The position numbers and the translations under genes are program-made. From positions 29,090-93,089 of the forward strand of contig JAAZXA010000068.1 in assembly GCA_014240385.1 (NCBI GenBank): a stretch of 64,000 nucleotides of DNA, given 5' to 3'. A model generated the notes under the pieces. The model was given only the letters and a program-made list of their open reading frames with translations. It was not told where the DNA came from and ran no database searches. Numbering within the stretch: the first letter of the stretch is position 1; each line of letters opens with the position of its first letter. The DNA is from Methanobacteriota archaeon (GTDB lineage: Archaea > Thermoplasmatota > Poseidoniia > Poseidoniales > Poseidoniaceae). Positions 8,153-51,948 of the stretch are shown here, in pieces.

Positions 8153-8162
8153 GAGCGGTTCC

Positions 8163-17191: not shown

Positions 17192-17198
17192 GAGCGGT

Positions 17199-29073: not shown

Positions 29074-29378
29074 GAGCGGTTTGTACCGGCATACTCTTGC
29101 TTAGACTGTTCGCTGGACAGTTGGCCTGTGAATCTAACTGCAACACTCCGTCTTCCCGTTTCTGTCTCCGTAGATACAATTGAGGGAAGCTGCGGGTTTG
29201 TCAATTGACTCGATGGCATCGTGGCCGAAGCCGCAGGATGCCCTAAGCAGTATCTTACCGTAGGTACTTACCCGACTCGCCAATTAGGGGTCACACCATC
29301 CATGACTGTTGGTGCCGTCCAAGGATTGGACACCGTAAGCGTATTGGTTCTGCCCCGGTTAGGTCTGTCGTGAGCGGT
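29074..29378 (-). ncRNA. non-coding island D
   Basis: opens with TAA-ACCGCTCACGA (29370-29378), conserved hairpin at 29311-29334, closes with PM-ATG at 29073. Confidence 0.4.
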
Positions 29379-29592: not shown

Positions 29593-30459
29593 TTATGTCC
29601 AAAGACTCCTCGTCATCCTCCATATCCCTGCTTTTGCGAAGTCAGGGTGTTTTTCTATCCCTACTGCGTGTCGCCCTGTGAGCATCGCAGCCAATCCTAG
29701 GCTGTATGATCCTGCAAACGGGTCGAGCACTACATCTCCAGGATAAGTGGAGAAGCGAATAAGTTCAATCAAGAGTTCAACAGGCTTTTCTGTCTGGTGA
29801 ACCTTCTTCCTACCCATCATTCTAGAGTGGGTTTGAACATCTGCTATGCTGTTATTGATTCTTCTGCGCTTCCCTTTCGAGAAGAACAGAATTAGTTCGT
29901 GTCGTGGCCGACCATTGTAGCCAAGTGATATGACTTTCTTATCCCATACCCATTGGCTATTGAATGTGAAACCTGCGGCTTCTGCAATCTTGATTTGATT
30001 GTAGATGTAGTCGTAGGTGTCGTGCTTTGCTGCAGGCATGAAGCAAAAGAAGTGTCCATTGGGCTTCAAGACCCTAAGCATCTCCGAATACAAATCCGAA
30101 TCGATGTCTTTGGTCTCAAAATCCCATCCCTTCTTGAGATTCCTTGCTCGGGTAGTTCCCGTCTGCATTTGAGCATTCAAGATTGAATACGGAGGATCTG
30201 TGATGATAGCATCGAAGCTGTTATCTTCTAACTTTGCTAATTCATCCCAACTGTCTCCTTCAATCAAAGCGCATTGTGTGTCGCCAACTGTGGCGATGTA
30301 TATGCCTCTTGATACTCTGCGAAAGCACTTGTCTATGTTTTCATTGAGTCTTCCACGAATTGTTGTTTCCTTTTCATCAGGCAATGCTTCGTATATCTCC
30401 TTGAGATTCGATTCATTGTCTGCTAGAAATTCAACCAATCTTTCTTTCAATGTTTTCAT
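29593..30459 (-). CDS. DNA methyltransferase (beta-class N4-C/N6-A, DPPY) with N-terminal wHTH
   Basis: track ORF 29593..30480 trimmed to PM-ATG at 30459; IITDPPYS then C-terminal VVLDPFAGSYS. Confidence 0.8.
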   Translation of the reverse strand: MKTLKERLVEFLADNESNLKEIYEALPDEKETTIRGRLNENIDKCFRRVSRGIYIATVGDTQCALIEGDSWDELAKLEDNSFDAIITDPPYSILNAQMQTGTTRARNLKKGWDFETKDIDSDLYSEMLRVLKPNGHFFCFMPAAKHDTYDYIYNQIKIAEAAGFTFNSQWVWDKKVISLGYNGRPRHELILFFSKGKRRRINNSIADVQTHSRMMGRKKVHQTEKPVELLIELIRFSTYPGDVVLDPFAGSYSLGLAAMLTGRHAVGIEKHPDFAKAGIWRMTRSLWT

Positions 30460-30480
30460 GAGCGGTTCAGTTTGGGTCAA

Positions 30481-32368: not shown

Positions 32369-32726
32369 GAGCGGTAAATAGGCATTACACCATTGCGCCA
32401 GCACAAGGCCTGCACTTATCCTAGACTTTCTGAGATGTTGAGGCCAAACCGACCAGTTCATCATCGAGGGCTTTCGGGGGGGCGTGTCGACTTCCTTGCT
32501 TGGAGCCACTTTACCCTAGCCCACCGATTTGGGAACGGTATGTCCTGTTCATGCCTTTAGCCGTCCAAATGGAACTAACTGCCGATCCGTAGATGGGTCT
32601 GGGCTTTGGCAATCCTTTGGATTCCGTCATTCCACTCAGCGTGGGTCTAGTGAGAGGTAAGTTGGGGGAAACCAAAAAGAAAACCCAACCGCCGTTGCAG
32701 TTGGGTTTGTTTGATTTGTGAGCGGC
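32369..32726 (-). ncRNA. non-coding island E (terminator plus about 300 nt of unassigned sequence)
   Basis: opens with GCCGCTCACAA (32718-32726), then a terminator-like hairpin; lacks the conserved 24-nt hairpin; closes with PM-ATG at 32368. Confidence 0.35.
32669..32716. terminator. hairpin with T-rich tails on both strands
   Basis: AACCCAAC (32682-32689) pairs with GTTGGGTT (32700-32707); minus-sense tail TTTTCTTTTTGG; shares a CCCAACCGC core with the 37463 hairpin. Confidence 0.55.
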
Positions 32727-33919: not shown

Positions 33920-34651
33920 TCAGAAGTTCAACTTCGAGATTCGTCCGTGTTCATCGCATTGCTGCTTGATACGGAGCAATTCGCAGGCACCACGCCTTAT
34001 CCAAGCGTAGGCCTTCTTGCCCATACTCTCGCCATGAGGGATGTCAAGTTCACTCCACTCAGGCCAGTCCCAAGCGTCAAGTCCTTCGACTTGCGGCTTT
34101 AGGAAATCTGGTATGGTGGTTTTTCCTTGTTCATCCATAGCTGAAAGTTGGTGAGCATTCATGTGCTCCGCTACAATCCAAAGGATTGCATCGTACCCTG
34201 AAGAATCATCTCCGAGGTGTTCTAATGCTTCCTCAAGCATCTTTGCAGATGCCTTGTCGTGTCCAAATGCAGTGCTTTGTGGCGTTCCATCCGGCCATGT
34301 CTTCTTCGGGCTGTCCTTTAATGTGGACAACTTTCCAAGATCCGACCAGAAAATAGCCATCTCAAGAATGTGGTATTTACTCCACTCATTATCCATAAGG
34401 ATAACAGGCGTATCTTCCAGATGTTGAAGCATCCCGATGATGTGGTTGTAAAGCCAACCTTCCTCGTGGTGCTCGTTGTTCTGGAAACAGTAGAGCGTCT
34501 CGGTGTCAAACACCAATCCGTCAATACTTGCCTTTCCGTTCTCGAGTAAGACGATCTCAGTAGTGTGTAGGTGCTTGTTGATAGCACCAATCACTTCTTC
34601 GATTTCTGTTCTTTCAATTCTGCCCGTAGGCAGACAATTTTTTTCTAACAT
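33920..34651 (-). CDS. possible HD-type phosphohydrolase-like protein (243 aa)
   Basis: PM-ATG; TAFGHDKASAKMLEEALEHL...ILWIVAEHMNAH resembles the GHD...H helical region of HD/CCA-enzyme C-terminal domains; weak. Confidence 0.4.
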   Translation of the reverse strand: MLEKNCLPTGRIERTEIEEVIGAINKHLHTTEIVLLENGKASIDGLVFDTETLYCFQNNEHHEEGWLYNHIIGMLQHLEDTPVILMDNEWSKYHILEMAIFWSDLGKLSTLKDSPKKTWPDGTPQSTAFGHDKASAKMLEEALEHLGDDSSGYDAILWIVAEHMNAHQLSAMDEQGKTTIPDFLKPQVEGLDAWDWPEWSELDIPHGESMGKKAYAWIRRGACELLRIKQQCDEHGRISKLNF

Positions 34652-34681
34652 GAGCGGTCTTTTTGCGTAGTCCTATTTGAA

Positions 34682-34882
34682 CTATGCAAGATATCCTCGT
34701 CCCATGAAATGCTTTCTACAGCCTCGAAAGCCGCACTTGTGGCATTCGCCAGGGTCGTGGGTATCTGGCTCTTGAGTTCCTTTTGGGACGAGTGGATCAT
34801 CATCATTGTGAATTGTAATGTTCTGCGTCCCGCAATGGGGGCAGTGCATTCTTGGTGGTTCGATGAATATTATCTGATTCAT
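34682..34882 (-). CDS. zinc-ribbon protein (66 aa)
   Basis: track ORF 34682..34894 trimmed to PM-ATG at 34882; CPHCG...CHKCG. Confidence 0.7.
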   Translation of the reverse strand: MNQIIFIEPPRMHCPHCGTQNITIHNDDDPLVPKGTQEPDTHDPGECHKCGFRGCRKHFMGRGYLA

Positions 34883-34890
34883 GAGCGGTT

Positions 34891-35118
34891 TCAATTCTTG
34901 ATAGGCATCAGCTTAAATCTGCAGCCTAGCATCAATTCATACATTACACCCCAATAAGGATGGGGTCTCCGTAGAGTCCACCATATATCGCAAAAGCGTT
35001 CAACCCCGACTGATTCAAGCCACTTTATTGCGGCTTTGCTGTTCTTGAATTTCGGGGATTTGAATCGGATTCTCTTTCGATCCTTGTAAAGGTGGATTGT
35101 GTATCTCTTTTCGGGCAT
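34891..35118 (-). CDS. hypothetical basic protein (75 aa)
   Basis: track ORF; PM-ATG at 35118. Confidence 0.7.
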   Translation of the reverse strand: MPEKRYTIHLYKDRKRIRFKSPKFKNSKAAIKWLESVGVERFCDIWWTLRRPHPYWGVMYELMLGCRFKLMPIKN

Positions 35119-35126
35119 GAGCGGAT

Positions 35127-35408
35127 TTAATCCAGTGGATGTTCAGCCTTCGTGTTAAGGATCCATTCCAGCGTCTTGACTACGCCCCGAAGGGCATTGT
35201 AGTTTCGGACTGCTTCGCTGAATTTCTTCTCACGGGGGCTTACTCTCATCTCTTTCAGTTTATGGAGGTGGTTCAACCACCAATCCCTTCGTTCCTTCGC
35301 TTCGTGATACATTTCAATAATGTCATCCCAATTGCGATTAAAATCGAAGGGTGAACTTACTTGGGTCAGTCTGGGAGTTGTCATCATGGGTGGCGCATCA
35401 ATTCTCAT
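35127..35408 (-). CDS. hypothetical protein (93 aa)
   Basis: track ORF 35127..35441 trimmed to the first ATG (35408), 7 nt downstream of ACCGCTCAC (35416-35424). Confidence 0.6.
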   Translation of the reverse strand: MRIDAPPMMTTPRLTQVSSPFDFNRNWDDIIEMYHEAKERRDWWLNHLHKLKEMRVSPREKKFSEAVRNYNALRGVVKTLEWILNTKAEHPLD

Positions 35409-35428
35409 ATTTGATGTGAGCGGTGTGT

Positions 35429-35842
35429 TCACGACCAGCAATTAAACTGGTCGATGCGAACACGCTTTTGGTCCTTATCGGCTCCACGCCCGATAGAATC
35501 GGGTGTGGGGACAGTCGAAACAACAGGGTAGCCATAGGCTTCTGCTGCGACTGCTGAACCAACTACAAGTACTCCTTCGGGGACAGTTGCTAGGAAAGCA
35601 AGTCCATCCTCTCGGGGTAGCTTCGTTGGTGTTACGAAATCGACATCCACTTCAACCTCAAGGTCGAGCGGGTTCCCTCCAAAATCTGCATTCAGCATAA
35701 CTCCAGAAGGCTCTACTTCGGTTTCATCCTCAAAGATGAACGAATGCCATGTTGTGCTAAGCACTTTGACTCCGTTACTCAAGGTGTAAACCATGCTGTC
35801 GTCGTATTCGTTTGTTTTCTCCATATTATTGTCTGTTGACAT
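35429..35842 (-). CDS. hypothetical protein (137 aa)
   Basis: track ORF 35429..35896 trimmed to PM-ATG at 35842. Confidence 0.75.
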   Translation of the reverse strand: MSTDNNMEKTNEYDDSMVYTLSNGVKVLSTTWHSFIFEDETEVEPSGVMLNADFGGNPLDLEVEVDVDFVTPTKLPREDGLAFLATVPEGVLVVGSAVAAEAYGYPVVSTVPTPDSIGRGADKDQKRVRIDQFNCWS

Positions 35843-35865
35843 GAGCGGTATATTCCTTTCGGAAT

Positions 35866-36765
35866 TCAACTGAACACAGTCAAGAGTTCCTTCCACTCCT
35901 TTGGAGCACCCATTCTTAGCCGAATTGCCCTGTCGAGGGTTCGGAATGTAACGGCATCGCCATTGGCGTGAGTCTCTTTCAAATGTTTCAATACGCCCCT
36001 TTTGATGTTAATATCAACGCCAGGGTACATATTGGGTAGAATTGTGTTCATTCGTTCAAAAACCTCTGTAGTTGTAAGAACAACAGGGACCAACCAAGAC
36101 CTGTCGACCAGGGGTTGAGGCATTTCATGTTCCATCTTGTTTGTGATGAAGATTACCTGTCCCTTGAAATCGAACTTTCTCGGTAGTCCGTTGTTATCAG
36201 CCCATGAACTGTTCCATGAGATGACTCTTTGTCCATATGAGTCAAGTGCAGCCTTGCACAGTTCCATCATAGTCTCCCCAGACCAGATATCCACATCGTC
36301 TAGCACTAGCACTCCACCTTCTTGGCGGTCGTGCATAGCGGTGTAGACTCCGGTAGGAGCAATGTGTCCGGCAACCCAAGTGAATCCTTGCTTGCCTTTC
36401 TTGTCCTCTACGAGGTTCATTCGCTTGAGTGCTTCCTTTACCATGTGAGATTTTCCTAGTCCGCCTGTTCCACAGACGATTACTGAGGGACTAAATCTTC
36501 GAATTACCATCAACACAATTGATTCCATCATTTCGAATCTTTTGTTGACTGAGTGTTTGCTCATTTTATCGGTAATCGATTGGTTTCGCGCTTTCATTTC
36601 TCGGATTTTGGTATTTTCCTCGATTGATTGCGTTTCTGCTGTTGTTGCTGTACTTGCAATTGGTGTTACAACTTCGTTAGTCACACTTGAGGGGTTCGTA
36701 AAATTGATGTTCTCAAGTGTGCCGTTTTTGATATTTGTTTCTCCTTGCAAGTTATTCGTTTGCAT
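35866..36765 (-). CDS. P-loop NTPase (AAA/SF3-helicase-like)
   Basis: PM-ATG; Walker A VIVCGTGGLGKSH, Walker B GGVLVLDDVD. Confidence 0.6.
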   Translation of the reverse strand: MQTNNLQGETNIKNGTLENINFTNPSSVTNEVVTPIASTATTAETQSIEENTKIREMKARNQSITDKMSKHSVNKRFEMMESIVLMVIRRFSPSVIVCGTGGLGKSHMVKEALKRMNLVEDKKGKQGFTWVAGHIAPTGVYTAMHDRQEGGVLVLDDVDIWSGETMMELCKAALDSYGQRVISWNSSWADNNGLPRKFDFKGQVIFITNKMEHEMPQPLVDRSWLVPVVLTTTEVFERMNTILPNMYPGVDINIKRGVLKHLKETHANGDAVTFRTLDRAIRLRMGAPKEWKELLTVFS

Positions 36766-36776
36766 GAGCGGTGTGT

Positions 36777-37151
36777 TTAGAACACGGGGCAGTCATTCCA
36801 TTCTGCCCAAAAGGCAGACGATTCATCCTTTGCCAGCACAGGGCCGACTAGGACTTTGAATATCTCAAAGCGCATTCCCTCCAATTTTAATGGCAGGGTA
36901 ACATACCTGAGTATTGGAATTGCCTCACGGCCTTCATTCAGGGTATACCTTCTTTGAATAGCCATTAGTGATGATATCAACACTCGGCCTACAACCTTAG
37001 ATGCCGATTCATCGCTGGTGCTGCTTTGATGGGCAGTCCACGCTTTCCAAATCGGGATCCATAGGTAGTCATCCGTGTGTTCATCTGGTTGTATTGACCT
37101 CAACTTAGAGAAGAGGCTGTCTGCAACCGGGTCATTTGTTTGTTCTTGCAT
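36777..37151 (-). CDS. hypothetical protein (124 aa)
   Basis: track ORF 36777..37169 trimmed to PM-ATG at 37151. Confidence 0.7.
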   Translation of the reverse strand: MQEQTNDPVADSLFSKLRSIQPDEHTDDYLWIPIWKAWTAHQSSTSDESASKVVGRVLISSLMAIQRRYTLNEGREAIPILRYVTLPLKLEGMRFEIFKVLVGPVLAKDESSAFWAEWNDCPVF

Positions 37152-37162
37152 GAGCGGTTGGA

Positions 37163-37429
37163 TTAGCAAATTTCAAGCCATGCTTGTGTAGCCATTTCGG
37201 CTTCCTTTTTGCTAATCGCTATCCGGTTTCCACCCTTTGTGGTGGATGTGAGGACTGTTCCTCCTTTAGCCCATTCTTGGGCCTGTCTTTGTGCGTTTTT
37301 CTTGGCCTTTCGACCTCGTTTTCCATTTTCATGGATTTGTGTTGCTGTATCTTCGTAATATTGAGTCGTTCTGTTGAAATCTATTGAGCCTGTTTTGCGG
37401 CTGATTTTCCACGGAAAGATCCTAGACAT
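37163..37429 (-). CDS. hypothetical basic protein (88 aa)
   Basis: track ORF; variant PM ACCCCTC-ATG at 37429, first gene after a terminator. Confidence 0.65.
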   Translation of the reverse strand: MSRIFPWKISRKTGSIDFNRTTQYYEDTATQIHENGKRGRKAKKNAQRQAQEWAKGGTVLTSTTKGGNRIAISKKEAEMATQAWLEIC

Positions 37430-37447
37430 GAGGGGTGCAAAATGGGT

Positions 37448-37497
37448 AATTCAAAACAAAACGCCCAACCGCATTGTCGCGGTTGGGCTTTTTGAAT
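37448..37497. terminator. 10-bp GC-rich hairpin with T-rich tails on both strands
   Basis: GCCCAACCGC (37463-37472) pairs with GCGGTTGGGC (37479-37488); plus-sense tail TTTTTG, minus-sense tail GTTTTGTTTTG. Confidence 0.65.
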
Positions 37498-37695
37498 ATG
37501 ACTTTGCGTGGGGGGTGCTCGAGATTTTTACTAGCCGCCTGCCTGCTGTATGGCTCTCGAGGGTCCGTGAGGACACGGCTCCTAACACAACTGATTTCCT
37601 TCTTCAAGATCCAGTTGGCCTCATCCCTGAATTAGGGATTACATTCCTCATTACCTATTGAAGCCGTTTCCGGCCTCTGCTGTAATTTTTTCGTA

Positions 37696-37782
37696 CATGT
37701 GGGGTTATCGTTATGTCCATCTCGATTCATGGCTCCATTGCCGACCTCTAATAGGCGGAGCGGGATTTTTTTCGGTGTGTTG
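37696..37782 (-). repeat. 87-nt promoter/leader-like repeat, copy A
   Basis: near-identical to 40303-40390 (2 substitutions plus a 1-nt indel); ends in ACCCCACATG; contains an A7 run and CCTATTAGAGG. Confidence 0.85.
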
Positions 37783-37788
37783 AAAGGT

Positions 37789-38067
37789 TCAACGCTTTGC
37801 CTTGAGCATTTCTAGTTGCTGCAAGTGCTGGTTGTCTCTGAGTTGTTGCGCTGCATCCTTCATAACGAGTATTGTTGTCTGGGCATTTCCAATCACTCTA
37901 TCGATTGCTGCCTTTGACGCCTCGTCAATGAGAAGTTGCTCAACGCAATTACTTGCTTCCCTTGCTATCATCTTAATCTCTGATTTTTCACAGTTTTTGA
38001 TGTTTCGGGGGCGACGGTTTCGCTGGTTTCCTTTTCCTTTTCTTGGTTTTATACATTTATCGTGCAT
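37789..38067 (-). CDS. hypothetical basic protein (92 aa)
   Basis: track ORF; PM-ATG at 38067. Confidence 0.7.
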   Translation of the reverse strand: MHDKCIKPRKGKGNQRNRRPRNIKNCEKSEIKMIAREASNCVEQLLIDEASKAAIDRVIGNAQTTILVMKDAAQQLRDNQHLQQLEMLKAKR

Positions 38068-38082
38068 GAGCGGTTTGCTTTG

Positions 38083-38128
38083 GAACGGGAGCCCCGCTCA
38101 ATATCCGCAGATATTGGGCGGGGCGTTC
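38083..38128. promoter_or_regulatory. 14-bp-arm inverted repeat inside an operon
   Basis: CCCCGCTCAATATC (38092-38105) / GATATTGGGCGGGG (38110-38123), one mismatch, flanked by GAACG/CGTTC. Confidence 0.6.
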
Positions 38129-38144
38129 TAGATTTTGAACTCGT

Positions 38145-39071
38145 TCATACTCCGACGGATTTTGCTTTCTTGCTGTTTGTGATTGTTACAGCCAAGTTTG
38201 GTAATCCATCTTCATCTGTGCGTAGGTCAATGAAGTAGCCACGGATGCTTTCGTTGCAATCTAATGCTAAACGCCAGACACTTTGTTTTCCTGTTGGAGG
38301 TGCGGCAATTGGTATGCCTGCTCCCTCAACTAGGGTGTGAACAGAGTAATCAGCCTCATTCATTGGGTTTGAAGCTGCTCGTCCGGACAAGATGTAACCA
38401 GGGGTGATTCCCTGTCCATCATGGCGGGTTAGGCTCATCAAGTTGGCTGGACCGTTTAGGTCGCCAAGAAAGTTGATGAGCCCGATTCCGATTTGTCCTC
38501 GAGTAACTTTCCCATTTGATTGTGGGGTTGAGTCCTGTCCTTCCATGAAAAATGGAATAGATCTGATGCGTAGAGCACTATTGATTAGTGCAACGAATCC
38601 TTGAACCATGTTCAGACTGTTGGAGTTGTAAAGCTGCCATCTGCTGAGGCCATCCACTGATGGGGTAGGCCAGTAGTCCAATTTTTCGTGATACTCACAT
38701 TCTGCCATTCGCACGAATACCGTGTTCAGCCCGATGATTGTTGGGCTTGGTGCGGTTACGATGTCTGAGATGATTCCTGCATCTTTGAGGATGCTGAGTT
38801 CATCAACGAGGGCTTGCTTATCAAGTCCGAAGGCCAGCATGTCGCATCTGACTTCGTAGACTGGTCCGTCTCCGTCAGTATTTGGGACATAGATGAAGCG
38901 AGTTCCACCGTTTACAATGTATCGGGTGAAGTTCTTCTTTCCTTTTTGCTTGGTCTTCCTTGTGACTTCTACTCCTTCCAAGTGTTGTTCTGCTGCTTGG
39001 AGGGTATTGATTAAGTCCTCTGGGTCTATCTTTTCGTTCGTTTTGGTTTCTGTTTGCATGTTTGTTTGCAT
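38145..39071 (-). CDS. hypothetical protein (308 aa)
   Basis: track ORF; PM-ATG at 39071. Confidence 0.75.
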   Translation of the reverse strand: MQTNMQTETKTNEKIDPEDLINTLQAAEQHLEGVEVTRKTKQKGKKNFTRYIVNGGTRFIYVPNTDGDGPVYEVRCDMLAFGLDKQALVDELSILKDAGIISDIVTAPSPTIIGLNTVFVRMAECEYHEKLDYWPTPSVDGLSRWQLYNSNSLNMVQGFVALINSALRIRSIPFFMEGQDSTPQSNGKVTRGQIGIGLINFLGDLNGPANLMSLTRHDGQGITPGYILSGRAASNPMNEADYSVHTLVEGAGIPIAAPPTGKQSVWRLALDCNESIRGYFIDLRTDEDGLPNLAVTITNSKKAKSVGV

Positions 39072-39095
39072 GAGCGGTTGATAGTTGAGTTAAAC

Positions 39096-39422
39096 TCAAC
39101 GGTATGCACCATACTTCAAACCGGGGATTGGGTGGTTTCCGGCTCCACGACGCCTCATTGTGGCAATCATGGAATGAAGGACTTGGTTCGCACGGAACGC
39201 AAGTTCATTTGGTCCCTTTGAAGGATCCAAATTTCCTTTGAAGTCGAATGCACCTGCTTCTTGAATGTCTGTCTCGCATAGGAGGCAGAGCCATTCAGGA
39301 GCTTTTCCAATTGTTAGCACCTTGCGGTGTCCAACAGAGGAGAACTCCTCGCTGTTCAGGTTGCAGTTGCATATAGCGCATGTTCTTGTTATCAATTTCT
39401 GCTTCGTTTGTGTTTGTAGCAT
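39096..39422 (-). CDS. zinc-finger protein (108 aa)
   Basis: track ORF; CAICNCN...CLLCE; start context CACACCACACATG (no exact PM). Confidence 0.65.
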   Translation of the reverse strand: MLQTQTKQKLITRTCAICNCNLNSEEFSSVGHRKVLTIGKAPEWLCLLCETDIQEAGAFDFKGNLDPSKGPNELAFRANQVLHSMIATMRRRGAGNHPIPGLKYGAYR

Positions 39423-39821
39423 GTGTGGTGTGTGCGGTTTGGGTTCTGGCAGAGCATTACCTTCACCTACTACGGTCTCGATTCTCCCTTGTTTCTCAAA
39501 TCCTAACCGGAAAGTCCGGTAGTCGGGTAGGTTAAATCCACCTATGATGGTGAATTAGTCCTCTTAATTGAGAATCGGCCTGCGTGGAACTCTGCTTCCT
39601 CTACGGCCATGGGGGAGTCGGCTCTAAGCAACATCAAGTCAAAGTAAGCATCCCCGATGGATTGCTCCATCTTCGTCTGCTTAGATCATGCTATGATATC
39701 GTTCGTAGCGACGCTTTGACTTGAATCGGCTTCGAGCTATCGATTCAGTAGTTGGTGGCCTCTACCACTGCTCGCTATCCGTTAAGGATGAGCATGTGGT
39801 TTTGGCCGTTATACGAGCGGT
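39423..39821 (-). ncRNA. non-coding region F (about 400 nt, structured, unassigned)
   Basis: follows the stop of 39841..40305; opens with AACCGCTCGTA (39815-39821 core); several local hairpins, e.g. ACCGGAAAGTCCGGT; no credible ORF. Confidence 0.3.
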
Positions 39822-39840
39822 TGCGTAAACATTGGCAATC

Positions 39841-40305
39841 TCATTGAGCGACCTGCCGCTTTCGTCTTGCTAAAGGAACTGGTGTTCTTTTGGGCTTGAC
39901 GGTTTTAGCGGCAGGTTGTACTCGGCTTCTGGACGCCTGATTAAACAGGTTAGTCGCAGATGATGTTCTTGCCTTATTCTTCTGCCCCTTGAACTGGGAT
40001 TTCTTGGCATGTGGCTTTGACGCCTTTGCCTTGACAGTTTTCATGTGCTTTCTCCAAGCCTTGATGTGATTATCATAGATTGGATCTGCGAAAACTGCTT
40101 CTGGCACATACCGAGAGACCATACTTCCGATTCGATTCCAGCCACCAAAACTCAATGAATCATTCATTGCGTTTTTGATTTTGGAAACATAGGATGCTGG
40201 AGCATTCTTATTCAGTTTGCTCCAGTGTTCGGAACCCATCTTGGTAACCCAAGTTGGGATGTAGAGTTCTTGCGGGGTTTCGATGTTCTTATTTTGCATA
40301 TTCAT
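39841..40305 (-). CDS. hypothetical protein with Lys/Arg-rich C-terminal tail (154 aa)
   Basis: track ORF; start follows the 88-nt repeat copy B. Confidence 0.7.
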   Translation of the reverse strand: MNMQNKNIETPQELYIPTWVTKMGSEHWSKLNKNAPASYVSKIKNAMNDSLSFGGWNRIGSMVSRYVPEAVFADPIYDNHIKAWRKHMKTVKAKASKPHAKKSQFKGQKNKARTSSATNLFNQASRSRVQPAAKTVKPKRTPVPLARRKRQVAQ

Positions 40306-40390
40306 GGGGGGTTATCGTTATGTCCATCTCGAATCATGGCTCCATTGCCGACCTCTAATAGGCGGAGCGGGATTTTTTTCGGTAGTGTTG
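40303..40390 (-). repeat. 87/88-nt promoter/leader-like repeat, copy B
   Basis: near-identical to 37696-37782; ends at the start codon of 39841..40305. Confidence 0.85.
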
Positions 40391-40400
40391 ATGGGAGAAT

Positions 40401-40778
40401 TTAGTCCTCAGCGATTGTGGGATCTTGAAGCGAATCATTTGCTTCTGCTGTTCCCTTTGCTGGGGACAGAACTTTGGACTCATTGAAGGTCCAACCTAAT
40501 TCCATCATCATGGATAGAATCCATTCAGGTGCTTGACTCCAGTTGCCATGGAACTTGATGTTGCACATGTTGGCGAATTCAATTATCTCGCTTTCTAATG
40601 TGCTTTGTGTTTTGCCATGGGTTGCTGCTGTCGCTGCAATTGCCTGATTAATGGATGCTCCAGATGCTTCTACTTCGAGCAATACTGTGTCCCAAAGGGT
40701 CATCATTGCTGAGTATAGGCTCAGGTATATTCGTTCTGCCATCGTGCTTGTTTGCTTGCTAACTTGTGTGTGTTGCAT
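40401..40778 (-). CDS. hypothetical protein (125 aa)
   Basis: track ORF; start context ACCCCACATG preceded by hairpin GGAAGAC-AAA-GTCTTCC and repeat module copy 1. Confidence 0.7.
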   Translation of the reverse strand: MQHTQVSKQTSTMAERIYLSLYSAMMTLWDTVLLEVEASGASINQAIAATAATHGKTQSTLESEIIEFANMCNIKFHGNWSQAPEWILSMMMELGWTFNESKVLSPAKGTAEANDSLQDPTIAED

Positions 40779-40800
40779 GTGGGGTATGGGAAGACTTTGT

Positions 40801-40841
40801 CTTCCTCATTAGCATAGGTCATAGGGGCCGTAGGCCCTGAC
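40801..40841 (-). repeat. 41-nt promoter-like module, copy 1
   Basis: CTTCCTCATTAGCATAGGTCATAGGGGCCGTAGGCCCTGAC; contains the GGGCC-GTA-GGCCC hairpin and, in minus sense, CCCTATGACC. Confidence 0.8.
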
Positions 40842-41034
40842 CGTTTTAGTCATGTTTTGGTGCTAAGTTTTATTCTACCTCTCGATAGAAACGGCGCAAA
40901 GCAACCTTTGGACTCCTCCCGTAAAGGGTGGTGTGTGTGGTGTTACGGGTGTCCATGGGTCTCTCTCGCCAATAAAGCGAGTTGTAGGCGTACTCCAACG
41001 CCTCGTTGTTCGTCAATGATTTGACTACACCTCA

Positions 41035-41168
41035 TGGTGGACCGTGCTGGATTCGAACCAGCGGCCTCCTAAGACAGACAACTTCGACTCCTTCCGTCCT
41101 GCCCGGGACAGTTCGGTTTTTGTCTTATTCTGTTTCTTAGGCGCTCTTCCTGACTGAGCTAACGGCCC
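41035..41168 (-). tRNA. tRNA-like gene with a 57-nt insertion in the anticodon loop and encoded CCA; identity unresolved
   Basis: reverse complement folds as GGGCCGT/TA/GCTC-AGTCAGGAA-GAGC/G/CCTAA-[64 nt]-TTAGG/AGGCC/GCTGG-TTCGAAT-CCAGC/ACGGTCC/A/CCA. Confidence 0.75.
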
Positions 41169-41193
41169 GTAACGGTGTTTTGAGGAAGTATTT

Positions 41194-41234
41194 CTTCCTC
41201 ATTGGTATAGGTCATAGGGGCCGTAGGCCCTGAC
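41194..41234 (-). repeat. 41-nt promoter-like module, copy 2 (upstream of the tRNA)
   Basis: CTTCCTCATTGGTATAGGTCATAGGGGCCGTAGGCCCTGAC; 3 mismatches to copy 1; followed in minus sense by hairpin GAGGAAG-AAATA-CTTCCTC. Confidence 0.8.
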
Positions 41235-41376
41235 CCATTTGTGTGTGGTTTTTGTGTGTTTGTGAGCGGTTTAGCCTGATTTCCAATCCATACTGACGAA
41301 CTTCCTCGTAAACCAATTCTGGCCTTTCGGCACTCTCGGTTTGCGTAAGAGAGCGAGATCGTTCCCCGTGAGGGGC

Positions 41377-41646
41377 TTAGATCTTCGTAGCTCGCCTTCT
41401 GTTCACCTGGAACCATTGCTGGTACAGGTGCTCTCCAATAACTACTGCTGCAGGGTCGAGCATCGGGTTTCCGCTTGCTAGTGGACGGTCAAAAGACCAA
41501 TCCATGTGCTTACGGTGTTGCCGATATTGCTGTCGCCTGTAACTCAAATAGGGGTGTCCTTCACCGTCAAAGCGGTGTCGGTAACGATATTTTCTTATTT
41601 TTCCCCTCTTCCCAGCATTGGAAATCGTTTGTTGGCTAATTTGCAT
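41377..41646 (-). CDS. possible very basic protein (89 aa)
   Basis: track ORF only; Arg/Tyr/Gln-rich; no PM or SD seen. Confidence 0.4.
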   Translation of the reverse strand: MQISQQTISNAGKRGKIRKYRYRHRFDGEGHPYLSYRRQQYRQHRKHMDWSFDRPLASGNPMLDPAAVVIGEHLYQQWFQVNRRRATKI

Positions 41647-42044
41647 TTATCATACAAGCCCTGAACTACCTCATGTCCGTGGGGCTAATCCACATTGTCC
41701 TTTCGGAGCGTAGAATCACCTAAGCAGCAACCAGCCGCTTTTGCTTCGTAACATATCGGACCAACTGACTAATGCCAGTAGTGATTAAGTCACCAACGAG
41801 GTCTTTTCGTCAATGTTACGGTTTTCGGTGGACTACATGGGAAAGGAGCGATGATAGTCGCTACTTTCTCTCAATGTATATCCGTTAGCCGAGAAGAGGC
41901 ACCAAAAGGTGCGGGTATCTCTATTTCTCGACCCGGTGTCTCGGTGAAGTCCTCTTTCGAGGGATCCTCCGCCTTATCCCCTATCTCTAGGGTTTAGCAG
42001 ATACTTCGTGTAGGCCCTTGAGCCAACCGAGAGAGGGCATTCCT

Positions 42045-42084
42045 GTCCTCATTAGATGAGGTCATAGGAGCCCTAGGCCTTGCC
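42045..42084 (-). repeat. 41-nt promoter-like module, degenerate copy 3
   Basis: GTCCTCATTAGATGAGGTCATAGGAGCCCTAGGCCTTGCC; faces the ORF-free 41650-42040 stretch. Confidence 0.6.
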
Positions 42085-42097
42085 GTAGCAAGGTGGT

Positions 42098-42563
42098 GTG
42101 TGGTATAATTTCTTCGTGGTTTTAGGCCACAGGAGGTATATGAATAGGCCCTTTTACTCTCTTTCCTTTGGATCTAGAGGCCTCAAGCTGCTACTCTTGG
42201 CCTCTTTCTCTAGAAAGAGTGTATTTTGGGTATTTCTTCATGTTCTCCACTGTATTGTGCCACAGGGGGTATATGAATAGGCCACTTGCAGTCAATTTCA
42301 AGATCGCTGAAAGGGCATGATTAGCTTCTCATGCCTTCGCTTTCAATTATTGCTTCAATATGGGTATTTCTTCATGTTCTCCACTGTATTGTGCCACAGG
42401 GGGTATATGAATAGGCCATATTTCGGTAACATCTCCAGATCTCTCCTTCGAAAGCTACTCCTGGCATGGCCGTAGGCCAAACAGGGTGAAATATGGGTAT
42501 TTCTTCATGTTCTCCACTGTATTGTGCCACAGGTGTTATTTGGCAAGGCCGTTTCCGTTAACC
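42098..42563 (+). promoter_or_regulatory. four tandem promoter-like repeats at about 133-bp phasing; the last drives the TFB-like gene
   Basis: TGGGTATTTCTTCATGTTCTCCACTGTATTGTGCCACAGGGGGTATATGAATAGGCC at 42227 and 42360; degenerate copy at 42098; copy at 42493 ends GGTGTTATTTGGCAAGGCC, 28 nt before ATG 42564. Confidence 0.75.
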
Positions 42564-43694
42564 ATGGCGAGTAATGACGATACGGCCAATCAGATGGGGG
42601 CGACTGCTGATTTTTCGTCAATATCGTCTGTCCTTTGTCCTGCATTCGAACAGCCGCCTGGGTGTGCCGTCTCCCTTGCCAAGCAACAAAACTTTGATTC
42701 TTTGTCAGTCGACTCTATGACTGGGAGGGCGTATTGCGGATCATGCGGCGTGGAATTCGTTGTTGACCGTTATCAGGTTAGTCATGAGCAGAAAAAGAGT
42801 GATGATGGGATAGAAACCTACGGATCTGTTCTCTCCAAGTCTGGGAAGCAACGGAATAGGGAACAATCCTTTGACCGCCTGGGCTATCTTTGTATTAGCA
42901 AGTTGGACTTATCTCAAAGTGTGTTGGCACAAGCTACCCGCTACCTGTACGATATGATGGAAGGTGGAGCCGCTAAAGGAGGTCGGGGTTTTCCCCAACT
43001 CGAAGTGGTTGCGGCTTATGTGGCAGGTAGAATGCATAATCAATCCCTTACTCTCGAACATGTTGTTAATATCCATCGAGATTGGATTACAGAAGAAGGG
43101 GAGTTCAAATCGATAAAGGCGGCATCTATGAAATCAGTTAATCGATTGCTGCAGAATATGACTAGGGAAAACATTCTGCCTTACCCCCGCCCTTCTGCAG
43201 ATGATATCATTGGTTCTAATTCGTGGTGCTTGGCTAATCTAGATGAAGTCATTATTCAGAATGCTAAGGAGTTGTCTAATTGCGGAGTCCAAGGTTCCCC
43301 CGATTCTATTGCTGCAGCATCGGTGATGGTGGCTGCGAAGAATAAGCGTGTTGTGAAACCCGGAGATGACTTATCGCGGCCACGAACACAAATGGCCGGA
43401 GAGGAAGATGGGCAGCGTTTAACGCTCGAAGTGATTGCCAAATTGTTTCCTGGCACTACTGCTAGAACTGTAAGGCGAAGAATGAAAGAGATTAGGGATG
43501 TTTTGGAACTTAGGCTACCTCTAACACGAGAGCAAGTAGAGGTTCTTGAAAATCCTGATCCCCGCAAGGTGCGTGTCCGTAATACTGTTGAGGAAGTATT
43601 CAGTCAATTGGATTCGGAATTGGAAGGAAAGATACCATTGACTTCTAAGGATGTAGCAATTCTACGAAAATTGAAAGATTCAAACAAGAGGTAA
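42564..43694 (+). CDS. TFB/TFIIB-like transcription factor (376 aa)
   Basis: track ORF 42486..43694 trimmed to MASNDD. N-terminal Cys pairs (CPAF..GC, CGSCG). Two cyclin-like repeats: RGFPQLEVVAAYVAGRMHNQSLTLEHV and GSPDSIAAASVMVAA...LTLEVIAKLFPGTTARTVRRRMKEI. Confidence 0.7.
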   Translation: MASNDDTANQMGATADFSSISSVLCPAFEQPPGCAVSLAKQQNFDSLSVDSMTGRAYCGSCGVEFVVDRYQVSHEQKKSDDGIETYGSVLSKSGKQRNREQSFDRLGYLCISKLDLSQSVLAQATRYLYDMMEGGAAKGGRGFPQLEVVAAYVAGRMHNQSLTLEHVVNIHRDWITEEGEFKSIKAASMKSVNRLLQNMTRENILPYPRPSADDIIGSNSWCLANLDEVIIQNAKELSNCGVQGSPDSIAAASVMVAAKNKRVVKPGDDLSRPRTQMAGEEDGQRLTLEVIAKLFPGTTARTVRRRMKEIRDVLELRLPLTREQVEVLENPDPRKVRVRNTVEEVFSQLDSELEGKIPLTSKDVAILRKLKDSNKR

Positions 43695-44135
43695 TGTGAT
43701 TTCCCTTTTGGTTTTCTTGGAATCTTTTCTGTATTGCAACAGAACATAATGGATGTCTCTGCGATTGTAGCTTCCGTTTTCATCTGGTTCTGCGGACCAA
43801 CAGGCATACCTTAGTGAGCGGTTTTCTTCCTGCATTAGTTCCAACATGGTTTCAGGGCCAACGCTGTACACTTCCTTGACTTCTCTGAGAGATAATTGCT
43901 CATCTGGAACTAATCGCCAAAGTGTTCGTCTGTATTCTCCTGTTCCATCCTTTGTTCTTTCAACACCTGCTGGATCAAACCTTTCTGGGTATGATGAAAG
44001 GATCCCAGCAATTACTGATTTCCGTTCTTTACCCATTTTGTCTAGTATTCGGTCAAAAGGGAGAATTTCATCTTTGGACTCATGGAAGATTTTCTCAATC
44101 TTTGGGACAAGGCGGTTTTTTGCCTTCCTTGCCAT
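43680..44135 (-). CDS. putative winged-helix protein (151 aa)
   Basis: track ORF; GAGG-type SD upstream of ATG 44135; contains an internal sense-strand AAACCGCTCAC at 43814-43822. Confidence 0.6.
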   Translation of the reverse strand: MARKAKNRLVPKIEKIFHESKDEILPFDRILDKMGKERKSVIAGILSSYPERFDPAGVERTKDGTGEYRRTLWRLVPDEQLSLREVKEVYSVGPETMLELMQEENRSLRYACWSAEPDENGSYNRRDIHYVLLQYRKDSKKTKREITLPLV

Positions 44136-44428
44136 CAGGCCTCATCCCCCTCGTCCTTCCTAAGTTGTGTGAGTTCTTGCACCAGCCGCCAGACTATGTC
44201 GTCCATTGTCTCGCCCCTGTTGCCGAGGCTATTCAAGATTTCATGCGTTCTTTGCTTAACATTGATGTGTTTCAACTTTGAGCCGTCTGCCGCAATGTTC
44301 CCCATGAGACCAACTGTGTGTATCTGTCGTATAAGCGACTCGGAGGGATTGGGATGGGATGTGAAAGGCTGTGATACTTGGGCAAGAGGGGAGAGAGTTT
44401 ATGCACCGTGCGCTGAAAGGCGCCCATA

Positions 44429-44635
44429 ATGAAAGCAGAAGATCCTCTAGTGCAAACCTTACTCAAGACCCTGATGGAGTTAGAAAAGGTGGATGAAAAA
44501 GACTTGAGACACATGATTGAAGTTGCTGGACAACTATGTACCCAACTCGAGCGGCCGGAGAGTATTGCGGCCTTGATGTTTCAGGTGATGGATGTTTCCA
44601 AAGCGGTTGATTCCTCGATTACTGGTTATGCCTGA
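44429..44635 (+). CDS. hypothetical protein (68 aa)
   Basis: track ORF; TTTATGCACC box begins 31 nt upstream of the ATG (leaderless-type spacing). Confidence 0.6.
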   Translation: MKAEDPLVQTLLKTLMELEKVDEKDLRHMIEVAGQLCTQLERPESIAALMFQVMDVSKAVDSSITGYA

Positions 44636-50204: not shown

Positions 50205-50414
50205 ATGCGAGGGCTTCTTTTTCCAAGTGAATCTGCTCATCAAGCAGAGATAATGGCTGAGGCTTTTGCCAATAAATCGATATGGGACATGCGATGGTAC
50301 AAATTCAAACTTTGGTTCTACACTAGCGTAACTGCTTTCATCTTCATGTTCTTTACATCCCTTATTGAATGGTTCTTTGATTTCAGTCTTTTCAAGTGGA
50401 TGTTCGGGCTGTAG
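50205..50414 (+). CDS. small membrane protein (69 aa)
   Basis: track ORF; GGTGAGG SD; TM segment FYTSVTAFIFMFFTSLIEWFF. Confidence 0.65.
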   Translation: MRGLLFPSESAHQAEIMAEAFANKSIWDMRWYKFKLWFYTSVTAFIFMFFTSLIEWFFDFSLFKWMFGL

Positions 50415-50416
50415 GT

Positions 50417-50431
50417 TTCATACGGCTGAAC
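50417..50431 (+). promoter_or_regulatory. promoter-like box P4 TTCATACGGCTGAAC
   Basis: ATACGGCTGAAC begins exactly 27 nt before ATG 50447. Confidence 0.6.
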
Positions 50432-50446
50432 CGTCTCACATTGTCC

Positions 50447-51211
50447 ATGACGCTAAGCGGATTCATTGCAATGCCTCGAAAACCGGGGAAAACAAAGATT
50501 GGGCAGATCCTCAAGAATATTGGATTCAAGGATAAGGGAGCAGCAGGAAATATGTGGGTCTTTGGTAAGACTCGGTTCCGTGTAGATGTGGTTGATTTTA
50601 GGGATGATTTGAGAGATCATGACGCTGAATGGGTTGAAGAAGTTGGATGGGATGATAATTGGGCCGTCCGTATTGCTGTCAATCATTCTAACAGAACAGA
50701 TGAAAATTACATCTTGTGGCATTCGATTCTAGTCATAGCCGCTGAGTGCTTAGGCGTTAGAGAAATTTGGTTAGATGGCGGCACAGGCATTCCACAGCAA
50801 CCGTACACACTTCGAGAGTTGTTTCCTGAATTGAAATCTGATGAAGGAGAAGACTTGATTGAAGAATCCGAAGCCGCCCCTGTTCTAGTCGACAAGGCAG
50901 AAGTCTTGGAGCTTCCAGATATTGAAACACCTGCTGAGCCTGTTTTGGTTCCATCTGAGCCTGAGCCTGAGCCTGAGCCTGAACCTGTGCCTGAGCCTCA
51001 AACAGAATCGTCCGAAGAGGATTACGATTCCTGGGGATGGGATGAGGATGAGGATGAGGATGAGGATGAGGATGAGGATGAGGACGATTCATGGAATGAG
51101 GATGAGGATGAGGATGAGGATGAGGATGAGGACGAGGATGAATCCGAAGAAGAGAATGAATCCGAAGAGAATGAATCCGAAGAAGGTGTTGATGTAATCA
51201 CTGAATGGTGA
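50447..51211 (+). CDS. protein with (EP)n and (DE)n low-complexity C-terminal half (254 aa)
   Basis: track ORF 50396..51211 trimmed to the ATG set by box P4. Confidence 0.7.
   Translation: MTLSGFIAMPRKPGKTKIGQILKNIGFKDKGAAGNMWVFGKTRFRVDVVDFRDDLRDHDAEWVEEVGWDDNWAVRIAVNHSNRTDENYILWHSILVIAAECLGVREIWLDGGTGIPQQPYTLRELFPELKSDEGEDLIEESEAAPVLVDKAEVLELPDIETPAEPVLVPSEPEPEPEPEPVPEPQTESSEEDYDSWGWDEDEDEDEDEDEDEDDSWNEDEDEDEDEDEDEDESEEENESEENESEEGVDVITEW
50957..50998 (+). repeat. hexanucleotide tandem repeat (GAGCCT)x7, imperfect
   Basis: read directly; encodes EPEPEPEPEPVPEP. Confidence 0.9.
51041..51142 (+). repeat. two runs of (GATGAG)n hexanucleotide repeat
   Basis: 51041-51085 and 51096-51142; encode DEDEDE... 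tracts. Confidence 0.9.
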
Positions 51212-51948
51212 GTTCTTTGGTTGAAGGGGGTGCAATGGCGTGGGGAGGCCTCCTTTACCTCAAGCACCTTTGGGATTCTTGGAAAAGTCACCGAATAGGA
51301 ATATATGGCCTGTGGGCGTGTGGTAAGACCACCCTGAATCGTTATTTGAATACCTCTGGGGATCTCGAAGAAGATACTGCCCGTATGACTAGCACCGCTC
51401 ACCCCTATGATAAGAAGAAGAAGCAGTATGTTCCACCAAATGCAACCCGCAAGAGAATTCATGTTTTGTCCGAAGCAAATCAGTCATTCCGTAGAACCAT
51501 TCTCTCGTCTGATATTGGAGGCCAGTCCGAATATTTCAATCTCTGGGTTCGAGATTTGGTGTTGCGTGATGTTGAAGTAATCATCTATCTGGTTGATTCA
51601 AGGGATGATCCAGATGGGCTTCAAGAGGCAACATTTCGAGACTTTACGAGAATTATTGCCGAGAGAGATTTCCGTTTTACTGAACGAAAATTGAGGAAAA
51701 AGGCCAGAAATTATCAGCCGAAGGTGGTAGCCCTTGTTGCCAATAAATCGGACCTTTGGCTCAATCCAGACGAACGGGCGTATTACGAGGGGTCTGGCAT
51801 TGGCAGGCATCCAATTTTTGATGCTTACAGGCCGCACTTGGTACGGCTACAGAGAGCCGGTATTCCTACTTTGAAGCGAAGTATTTCAGCCCTCCATGGG
51901 TATGATGTGGAGCGATTAATATGGGATTGCTTGAAGGCGAAGTCGTGA
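51205..51948 (+). CDS. Arf/Arl/Sar-like small GTPase (247 aa; alternative start ATG 51235)
   Basis: G1 GLWACGKTT, G3 DIGGQSEYFNLW...IIYLVDSRD, G4 ANKSD, G5 SAL; hydrophobic N-terminal helix MAWGGLLYLKHLWDSW, as in Arf. Confidence 0.75.
   Translation: MVSSLVEGGAMAWGGLLYLKHLWDSWKSHRIGIYGLWACGKTTLNRYLNTSGDLEEDTARMTSTAHPYDKKKKQYVPPNATRKRIHVLSEANQSFRRTILSSDIGGQSEYFNLWVRDLVLRDVEVIIYLVDSRDDPDGLQEATFRDFTRIIAERDFRFTERKLRKKARNYQPKVVALVANKSDLWLNPDERAYYEGSGIGRHPIFDAYRPHLVRLQRAGIPTLKRSISALHGYDVERLIWDCLKAKS

Follow-up and report, generated by a model that had tools for sequence, protein, structure and literature searches.

The question raised by this locus is why one short non-coding element should stand, almost unchanged, in front of two different units only 2.6 kb apart. 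The window (the whole stretch of DNA that was analyzed, 64,000 nucleotides (nt), positions 29,090 to 93,089 of contig JAAZXA010000068.1 in GenBank assembly GCA_014240385.1, filed under a Methanobacteriota archaeon) carries this element, here called module M, as copies A and B, and a preliminary description made from the letters alone had taken it for a promoter- or leader-like sequence. We found M to be an intergenic module that is non-coding, conserved, and equipped with hairpins; its two copies in the window are a young duplication located at junctions bounded by a 7-nt start motif, ACCNCNC. Our favored reading, to which we assign a probability of about one half, is that M would be a transcribed leader or trailer RNA module duplicated through the shuffling of gene cassettes; comparison with related sequences supports the evolutionary part of this reading well, and the functional part is what we infer.

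A repeat search of the window returned an 81-nt, gap-free pair (37696-37776 and 40303-40383) with 98% identity, which global alignment lengthened to 88 nt in copy A and 89 nt in copy B (Table 1), with 96.6% identity by blastn. Alignment thus bore out the duplicated element of ~87 nt that had been described, with two substitutions and one 1-nt indel. These differences are located in a loop, in the tail, and before an A-tract, and none falls in a stem. An 18-nt core of the repeat had two occurrences in the window at ≤3 mismatches and none in 100 shuffles. All long open reading frames (ORFs) around the repeat lie on the minus strand and, read in that sense, copy A begins 5 nt past the stop codon of the upstream ORF and copy B 9 nt past, and both end in ATG. 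As first described, the ATG of copy B is the start of the 154-amino acid (aa) ORF at 39841-40305, and that of copy A opens a 15-codon frame. The copies are flanked by ACCTT...ATGTAC and CTCCCA...ATGAAT, respectively; there are only two of them, and neither has terminal inverted repeats or a target-site duplication. Independent metagenome contigs from other samples confirmed the arrangement at 99.9-100% identity: L005 and L006 cover copy B plus both flanks, L019 covers copy A plus both flanks, and L020 runs into copy A from upstream and stops within it. Because these contigs confirm both copies, each with variants of its own, the repeat is real and an assembly artefact is excluded.

The short frames within the element differ between the copies (32 versus 11 codons), as the preliminary description had noted, and they are not conserved in the relatives either, one of which has a frame-shifting loop length; M was accordingly rejected as a peptide-coding leader. 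A short peptide behind copy A, also proposed at the outset, found no support, since the 15-codon frame is unconserved and is replaced by 18 unrelated codons in L007. Neither does that frame end just before a terminator, as had been stated: the hairpin terminator at 37463-37488 lies ~160 nt past its end.

The origin of the two copies became apparent upon comparison with nine related contigs (listed L007-L015, L017, L018), which amount to four or five distinct sequence versions. They were collected through homologues of the 154-aa protein (66-75% identity) together with a conserved non-coding pattern, and show 72-88% DNA identity to window positions 34,000-44,600 by blastn. All relatives have the same order: homologues of the 125-aa ORF (111-123 aa), a module of the M type, a conserved structured non-coding RNA (ncRNA) region of ~400-500 nt (ncR), and homologues of the 108-aa, 154-aa, and 308-aa ORFs. 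After the 308-aa homologue come a hairpin, a second conserved non-coding stretch with a terminator (ncR2), and the 88-aa homologue. Each relative has a single M-type module, at the position of copy B. The left flank and 3′ half of copy B align with the same-locus module of L007, L011, L012, L013, L015, L017, and L018; the left flank, TAAATTCTCCCATCAACACTACCGAAAAAAA, is homologous to TAAGTTCCATCTCGCCCATACAACCGAAAAAA of L012, and the 3′ half (GCAATG, the second hairpin HP2, ACATAAC, and ACCCCCC) is alignable with all relatives. Copy A is missing at its position in L007, L009, L010, L011, and L015. By this comparison, copy B is the parental copy at the ancestral locus and copy A is derived.

The search of related genomes recommended in the preliminary description therefore had a mixed outcome, in that one homologous module was found but no near-identical copy: blastn-short at E<1 returned only chance words of 11-13 nt from the relatives, and no host or provirus copy was found in GTDB genomes. 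The two copies are 97% identical to each other, but copy B hardly aligns with the relatives, and the duplication is therefore young. Their near-identity reflects a recent duplication tied to cassette shuffling and not promoter conservation.

Two rearrangements separate the window from its relatives, and their junctions could be read to the base (a slash marks the junction). In the first, the 154-aa gene sits in the window between copy B and the body of ncR. Its left junction reads GATAACCCCCC/ATGAAT (tail ACCCCCC/ATG) in the window versus AACCGCTC/ATGAATTAC in relatives, and its right junction reads ACGCAACCGCTC/GTATAACGG versus ACCCCCCACACCACTC/GTATAACGG; the body of ncR starts in relatives at ACACCACTC/GTATAACGG. 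The emptied site reads 108 aa...AACCGCTC/ATG (308 aa) in the window versus 107 aa...AACCGCTC/ATG (164 aa)...ACCGCTC/ATG (316 aa) in relatives, and by this comparison the present join of the 108-aa and 308-aa genes at ATCAACCGCTC/ATG is the scar of the excised 154-aa cassette. The two copies of M do not front comparable units: behind copy B, the 154-aa gene arrived secondarily and separates the module from the ncRNA that was its first partner.

In the second rearrangement, insertion of the 92-aa ORF and copy A parted the motif from the opening ATG of ncR2. The resulting sequence in the window is AAACCGCTC/ATG (92 aa)...M...ACCCCAC/ATGTACGAAAAAAT, where the motif before the 92-aa ATG is also given as AACCGCTC, and the uninterrupted site in L007 reads CAACCTCTC/ATGTATATGAAAAAT (also given as AACCTCTC/ATGTATATGAAAAAT). 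No homologue of the 92-aa ORF other than itself was found among 5.8 billion cluster representatives. All junctions described coincide with copies of ACCNCNC, with the crossover points in the ACCNCNC tail of M. The start of the 154-aa gene is moreover a hot spot: L011 has an insert of ~240 nt (1708-1947) and L018 one of ~95 nt (4303-4398) directly before the ATG of the 154-aa homologue. These inserts are unrelated and non-coding, each ends in ACCNCNC, and microhomology is present at their ends (AACCGC.CA; ATGAA). Because comparison with the relatives places both copies of M at motif-bounded junctions, the view that the duplication arose as a by-product of motif-mediated cassette shuffling is well supported.

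The start motif itself is ubiquitous in the window, with ~150 copies of ACCNCNC in all. On the minus strand its form ACCGCTCATG was counted 82 times and the form ACCNCNCATG 90 times; the plus strand has neither. The motif is fused to almost every minus-strand gene start between positions 1 and 39,100 (e.g., 39077, 38073, 37157 ... 158), and a stop codon often abuts it directly (TGA-ACCGCTC-ATG). A profile of 87 starts showed full conservation from -7 to +3 and none elsewhere back to -70; with no conserved position between -70 and -8, those starts have no upstream TATA-like position. The motif also fronts units without an initial ATG and, in relatives, the body of ncR, while several plus-strand genes have ordinary GGAGG/GGTGA ribosome-binding sites instead. 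A literature search for the motif string returned nothing relevant, and neither did a poorly framed promoter query. The motif is presumably kept for expression and would serve only incidentally as microhomology for cassette exchange. Units of a different kind also carry it: four paralogous non-coding units of 200-300 nt on the minus strand (~2010-1780, 11388-11150, 26339-26100, and 29377-29080) open with ACCGCTCAC(G/A) in place of a motif followed by ATG, and have a conserved hairpin, GGTGTCC(A/T)ATCCTTGGACG(A/G)CACC, 30-45 nt downstream.

In the relatives, module M consists of an A-tract (A4-A6), a 4-nt spacer, hairpin 1 (HP1), a middle hairpin, HP2, ACAUAAC, and the tail ACCCCCC (ACACCACUC). 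The tail, ACCCCMC, is a variant of the unit-start motif and abuts the next start codon. HP1 stems are perfect yet unrelated in sequence (CCGAACC with GGTTCGG in the L011/L013 type, TTCAGGTC with GACCTGAA in L012, and TCAATCC with GGATTGA in L007; GCTCC(GCC) with (GGC)GGAGC in the window), and the loop, with its box CCUAYKAWAG, keeps CTAYKAWAG across lineages as the sole conserved part of HP1. HP2 occurs as CCGU with ACGG, UCGU with ACGA, or, in the window, CCAU with AUGG, without any mismatch, and the middle hairpin of the relatives as GCAAU with AUUGC or GUAAU with AUUAC, with one compensatory change. Changes on both sides affect five of the seven pairs of HP1 (helix 3) and two of the four pairs of HP2 (helix 5); MAFFT mis-registers the arms of HP1. 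The proposal that selection acts on the RNA or DNA was hence upheld, in that the homologous module of the relatives keeps two to three hairpins by compensatory changes. Since the arms of HP1 covary, both must be contained within one strand, for which RNA made by read-through is the simplest explanation and single-stranded DNA the other. As for the TATA-like candidate CCTATTAGA, it does coincide with the conserved CTAYKAWAG stretch of HP1, but it is non-canonical and lies in the loop of a covarying hairpin.

Table 1. Coordinates of module M, its partners, and neighboring genes in the window
Feature	Position	Strand	Remarks
125-aa ORF	40401-40778	minus	Upstream of copy B; start context ATACCCCAC/ATG; D3 element 40800-40847 upstream
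Copy B of module M	40303-40391	minus	89 nt; ancestral locus (by comparison with relatives)
Copy B, A-tract	40379-40373	minus	
Copy B, HP1 arms	40368-40361 and 40349-40339	minus	Around loop box CCTATTAGAGG (40362-40352)
Copy B, HP2	40339-40324	minus	
Copy B, ACATAAC	40323-40317	minus	
Copy B, tail ACCCCCC	40312-40306	minus	
Copy B, ATG	40305-40303	minus	
154-aa gene cassette	39841-40305	minus	Translocated; homologue in relatives between 108-aa and 308-aa, start AACCGCTC/ATG
AACCGCTC motif	39815-39822	minus	3′ end of moved cassette, joined directly to GTATAACGG, the first bases of ncR
ncR body	39423-39814	minus	Conserved structured ncRNA, original downstream partner of M (L007: 9151-9640)
108-aa and 308-aa ORFs	38145-39422	minus	108-aa ORF 39096-39422; 308-aa ORF 38145-39071; now joined at ATCAACCGCTC/ATG
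92-aa basic ORF	37789-38067	minus	Start AAACCGCTC/ATG; insertion versus all relatives, with copy A
Copy A of module M	37696-37783	minus	88 nt; derived copy (by comparison with relatives)
Copy A, A-tract	37772-37766	minus	
Copy A, HP1 arms	37761-37754 and 37742-37732	minus	Box 37755-37745
Copy A, HP2	37732-37717	minus	
Copy A, ACATAAC	37716-37710	minus	
Copy A, tail ACCCCAC	37705-37699	minus	
Copy A, ATG	37698-37696	minus	
ncR2	37430-37695	minus	Downstream of copy A; conserved and non-coding; ends in a bidirectional terminator (hairpin and T-run, 37463-37488)

The original partner of M, ncR, is predicted to fold into a multi-helix structure that includes long-range helices (121 predicted pairs; 95% of the cells are paired). 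It contains 17 compensatory pairs, compared with 5.5 ± 1.7 in shuffles (0/500) and 1-7 in slid controls, with lineage-specific hairpin insertions at helix tips and conserved G-U pairs that are possible on the minus-sense strand only. The description of M as promoter- or leader-like holds as regards the leader, because M directly precedes this structured ncRNA in all relatives; a promoter within M would be a rival candidate. The unit behind copy A, ncR2, has no M module in front of it in relatives. Its 3′ ~150 nt show only scattered differences from the relatives when the sequences are read by eye, and its terminator, called on both strands, is the one strong hairpin plus T-run of the region. 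Rfam 15 gave no match for M, ncR, or ncR2 in the window at E≤1; in L007, three sub-threshold matches were obtained (E 0.058-0.68, far below gathering scores), two on the ncR2 terminator hairpin and one to snR97 at 9587-9723. A look-alike of the ncR2 terminator occurs at ~32,665-32,705 on the minus strand; both have the form CCCAAC...GTTGGG TTTT(G/C)TTTT with an ACC(C/T)CTC unit start within ~30 nt, and the unit that follows might use their T-rich run as its TATA region as well.

How M came to occupy its two positions, and what it might do there, can be put as follows. The 154-aa cassette (ATG...AACCGCTC) was excised from between the 108-aa and 308-aa genes and reinserted between M and the body of ncR, and the 92-aa ORF with a second M was inserted as a unit before ncR2. 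M would be read through from the upstream gene within a multi-gene RNA, in which it would act as a boundary or leader element; its hairpins may define or protect the end of an RNA, or offer a factor a binding site in the conserved loop, and its C-rich tail would supply the motif needed by the downstream unit directly before its first base. If the tail supplies the start motif, M would be tolerated before a protein gene (copy B) as well as before a non-coding unit (copy A and the relatives). On the sense strand, from the D3 element (40.8 kb; see below) to the ncR2 terminator, there is no T-run of ≥5 except one within the 308-aa gene, and a terminator scan predicted none before M. Read-through into M is plausible, because no sense-strand T-run or predicted terminator precedes it. 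An RNA module of this kind would account for the covarying arms, for either type of downstream unit, and for the right end of the repeat, which falls exactly at ATG. The alternative that M is a translation enhancer for the downstream AUG was rejected, as M precedes an ncRNA in all relatives.

Several observations weigh against a transcribed RNA module. The A-tract conserved 4 nt upstream of HP1 is left unexplained, and the recurrence of the box CCTATGA 31-43 nt upstream of the tRNA-Lys gene, a tRNA-like gene, and the 125-aa gene is a promoter-like pattern. Folded alone, the window copies did no better than shuffles on either strand (z ~0). They lack the middle hairpin and their HP1 is poorly alignable with the relatives, so that homology in this part rests on position, flanks, and the 3′ half. 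The stems of M are all pure Watson-Crick, with no G-U pair, and are thus equally compatible with pairing in either strand or in single-stranded DNA, and the covariation of M comes from only four or five distinct lineages. A structured RNA evident from a single sequence was thus rejected, the structure being visible only by comparison with the relatives.

The conserved loop and the recurrent box form the core of the alternative that survives best, though we regard it as doubtful, namely that M contains an internal archaeal-type promoter followed by a short leader. Here CCTATKA(GA) would be a virus-specific TATA-like element, perhaps read with the help of a viral transcription factor B (TFB)-like protein whose gene lies 2 kb away, and transcription would start ~25 nt downstream, with the remainder of M as a 5′ leader that closes with the start motif. 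The box is the only part of HP1 conserved across lineages. In non-coding DNA, CCTATGA stands 31-43 nt before tRNA-Lys (59195), before the tRNA-like gene (41218), and before the 125-aa gene (40825); it is present upstream of a conserved non-coding block (42068) as well, and in the D3 elements of the relatives it lies 34 nt before an ATG. By manual count, the middle hairpin of the relatives begins on the very base where a start 26 nt from the center of the box would fall. Near-identical repeated promoters are, moreover, common in viruses. Such a promoter would not explain the covarying HP1 arms around the box, which is not a canonical TTTAWA, and no purine-rich TFB-recognition element (BRE) is conserved, the 7-8 nt upstream being the 5′ arm of HP1, which differs in each lineage. 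Box and unit start lie 50 nt apart in the window and 77 nt apart in relatives, as opposed to 31-43 nt for the other boxes, and a start at the usual distance in the window would cut into HP2. Enrichment of the 7-mer is modest (nine on the minus strand, four on the plus strand), and three of these are paralogous D3 copies. A sigma-70 scan was negative for both copies and, over the region, counted no more sites than in shuffles.

The D3 element is a palindrome plus box, present in three minus-strand copies (40800-40847, 41193-41240, and 42043-42090) of the form GGTCAGGGCCTACGGCCCCTATGACC...YAATGAGGA. In two of them AATGAGG ends 25-28 nt short of the 125-aa ATG and of the tRNA-like gene, respectively; the third copy stands upstream of a 900-nt block. 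D3 is multi-copy in the relatives too. It is the best promoter candidate of the region.

A neutral history, in which copy A was dragged along with the 92-aa ORF and is functionless, with only copy B or neither being functional, appears unlikely. The duplication is young, its three differences are too few to measure selection on copy A, and ncR2 of the relatives does without M. However, assemblies from no fewer than two or three samples have both copies fixed, each with its own variants, the right end is exact at the junction of start motif and ATG with a valid ACCCCAC/ATG context kept, and the three differences avoid the stems.

We consider it quite improbable that M is instead a terminator for the plus strand. 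Oligo-T runs are the archaeal termination signal and, read on the plus strand, HP1 is a G+C-rich hairpin with T7 following 4 nt later (T4-T6 in relatives). Hairpin and T-run occur together in all lineages, and this explanation would cover both the covarying stem beside the conserved T-run and the A-tract. Against it, no plus-strand gene or conserved feature runs into M, the loop is conserved although terminators do not need this, the spacer between stem and T-run is a constant 4 nt, and the scan makes no call. The G-U pairs of the adjoining ncR exist on the minus-sense strand only, and HP2, ACAUAAC, and the tail would be left unexplained.

The weakest proposal, a miniature inverted-repeat transposable element (MITE)-like mobile element or an integrated element with the two copies as its flanking attachment-site repeats, could point to two direct repeats 2.6 kb apart and to a serine recombinase gene at 57564-58385 on the minus strand, but is highly improbable given that terminal inverted repeats and target-site duplications are absent, that there are only two copies and no close copy in IMG/VR or GTDB genomes, that the 2.6-kb segment separating the copies is native to the virus and syntenic, and that serine recombinases are not known to leave 88-bp identical repeats.

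The nearest known analogue is found in the promoter-early stem-loop (PeSL) cassettes of T4-type phages, small promoter-plus-stem-loop units that are sites of indels and replacements of homologue-less genes (Arbiol et al. 2010, PMC2839356; Comeau et al. 2014, PMC4122927). Like them, M is a small composite of non-coding parts that includes a stem-loop and lies, in a variable region, among small genes that often lack homologues, and the junctions of single-gene shuffling between close relatives coincide with the repeated element at both M copies. Recombination between neighboring PeSL copies is reported to release circles (PMC2839356), a step that for M we infer only. PeSLs have a strong sigma-70-like promoter and an effective terminator, both tested experimentally, and occur in many copies (PMC2839356, PMC4122927). 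M differs in its archaeal context, where it has no sigma-70 promoter and the TFB-like factor points to archaeal-type transcription. Its hairpins HP1 and HP2 covary but lack a sense-strand U-run, and the scan calls no terminator; only two copies are present in 64 kb (≤3 mismatches), with one M-type module per relative, and the sequence that recurs at all junctions is the 7-nt motif and not M. M is therefore not rated as a member of the PeSL family: the behavior is common to both, but a sigma-70 promoter and a high copy number are lacking.

Other comparisons were similarly partial. As in an archaeal BRE/TATA region, a box that is partly A+T-rich, CCTATTAG, lies in non-coding DNA ahead of expressed units, and a TFB-like factor is encoded nearby, but the box has neither TTTAWA nor a conserved BRE and is embedded in a covarying hairpin. 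By manual counts, its geometry is compatible with a TATA spacing of ~26 nt in the relatives and awkward in the window. M departs from intrinsic terminators in lacking a sense T-run and in having, on the plus strand, a T7 located 4 nt after the stem versus 0-2 nt. Its hairpins lie just after a stop codon and keep their stems by compensatory change, as do the intergenic hairpins of polycistronic mRNAs, both stabilizers of the repetitive extragenic palindrome (REP) or bacterial interspersed mosaic element (BIME) type and processing hairpins, but such elements usually have many copies, no conserved loop, and no end in a start-context motif. Integrons also have single-gene units bounded by a short recurring signal, excised and reinserted at another boundary. 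There, a tyrosine integrase recombines attC sites, which are imperfect inverted repeats of 57-141 bp. Here a short direct motif of 7 nt, contiguous with the start codon, forms the boundary, and no integron integrase was seen; the motif is most likely kept for expression.

The repeat alone is a young, ordinary duplication, and its value lies in the base-exact view that it provides of two recent cassette rearrangements. These used a ubiquitous 7-nt start motif as crossover, which makes them an archaeal-virus counterpart of PeSL shuffling. The region from 37.4 to 42.6 kb holds at least two conserved non-coding stretches without an Rfam family, ncR being backed by covariation and ncR2 ended by a terminator, and the hairpin-embedded box is a candidate virus-specific promoter or RNA signal next to a viral TFB-like factor. 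One could go further and suppose an undescribed mode of gene expression and genome plasticity in a marine archaeal virus, in which ~100 protein genes and several ncRNAs are each delimited by ACCNCNC at the first base, the motif acting as an RNA-processing or initiation signal (leaderless units) and as a cassette crossover point, with M and the L011 and L018 inserts as interchangeable RNA leaders that bring their own signal; we consider this generalization rather unlikely as it stands.

The window looks like part of an uncultured marine archaeal tailed virus, because it encodes a TFB-like protein, a tRNA-Arg(GCG), and proteins with matches to structural families. Its G+C content is 45%, with ~90 short minus-strand genes in positions 1-39,100 and a plus-strand block from 42.5 kb. 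The TFB/TFIIB-like protein (402 aa; 42486-43694, plus strand, probable start 42564) has a CxxC ribbon and cyclin-like repeats and a weak Pfam TFIIB match. Its AlphaFold model has a mean predicted local distance difference test (pLDDT) score of 64, rising to ~80 in the core, and its best structural matches are TFIIB/TFB chains (E 2.5e-7), including Pyrococcus TFB 1d3u_B. Homologues of this protein are confined to this virus group, with 45-76% identity. The tRNA-Arg(GCG) and tRNA-Lys were called by ARAGORN; an Arg tRNA with G34 is the archaeal solution for CGY codons and typical of archaea. A 951-aa protein matches phage head-closure and baseplate families, and an AAA-type 299-aa neighbor shares ~29% identity with uncharacterized T4-like phage proteins. 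The related contigs originate from marine metagenomes, those of Tara Oceans among them. A halophile host was ruled out by the median isoelectric point of 5.3 and the ordinary Lys and Ile content.

Searches beyond these metagenomes were negative. There was no DNA match to window positions 36000-42000 among GenBank phages (INPHARED), no relative in IMG/VR by the 18-mer core, the 308-aa protein, or one ncR pattern, and no match in GTDB genomes to the element core or the ncR patterns. Four IMG/VR matches to the core were dismissed as chance, having only the 18-mer in common and unrelated flanks, as was L016, one of six metagenome hits. Pfam, PHROGs, and NCBIfam contained no family for the neighboring ORFs of 125, 154, 108, 308, 92, and 88 aa.

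Further features of the window were observed in passing. A non-coding block of ~900 nt at 41243-42150 (minus strand) has 83-84% identity to relatives versus 72-76% for the flanking protein genes, which suggests another large RNA or a replication or regulatory region. Between 42110 and 42555, directly upstream of the TFB-like gene, there are four or five tandem units of ~133 nt with a common core of ~55 nt (…TTCTCCACTGTATTGTGCCACAGGGGGTATATGAATAGGCC, plus strand). The tRNA-like gene is a 131-nt match at 41038-41168 (minus strand, 48.9 bits) in which a 64-nt insertion replaces the anticodon loop; CCA is encoded, ARAGORN makes no call, and the gene is absent from relatives. It was not used as proof of archaeal splicing. 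Elsewhere on the minus strand are three DNA methyltransferase-like genes (29593-30480, 7247-8209, and 17199-17954) and two 3′-phosphoadenosine-5′-phosphosulfate (PAPS)-reductase-like genes (2909-3856 and 15920-17215). The plus strand carries a weakly Arf/small-GTPase-like ORF (51205-51948) and, at 51025-51168, a tract of GATGAG (Asp-Glu) repeats within a 271-aa ORF (50396-51211).

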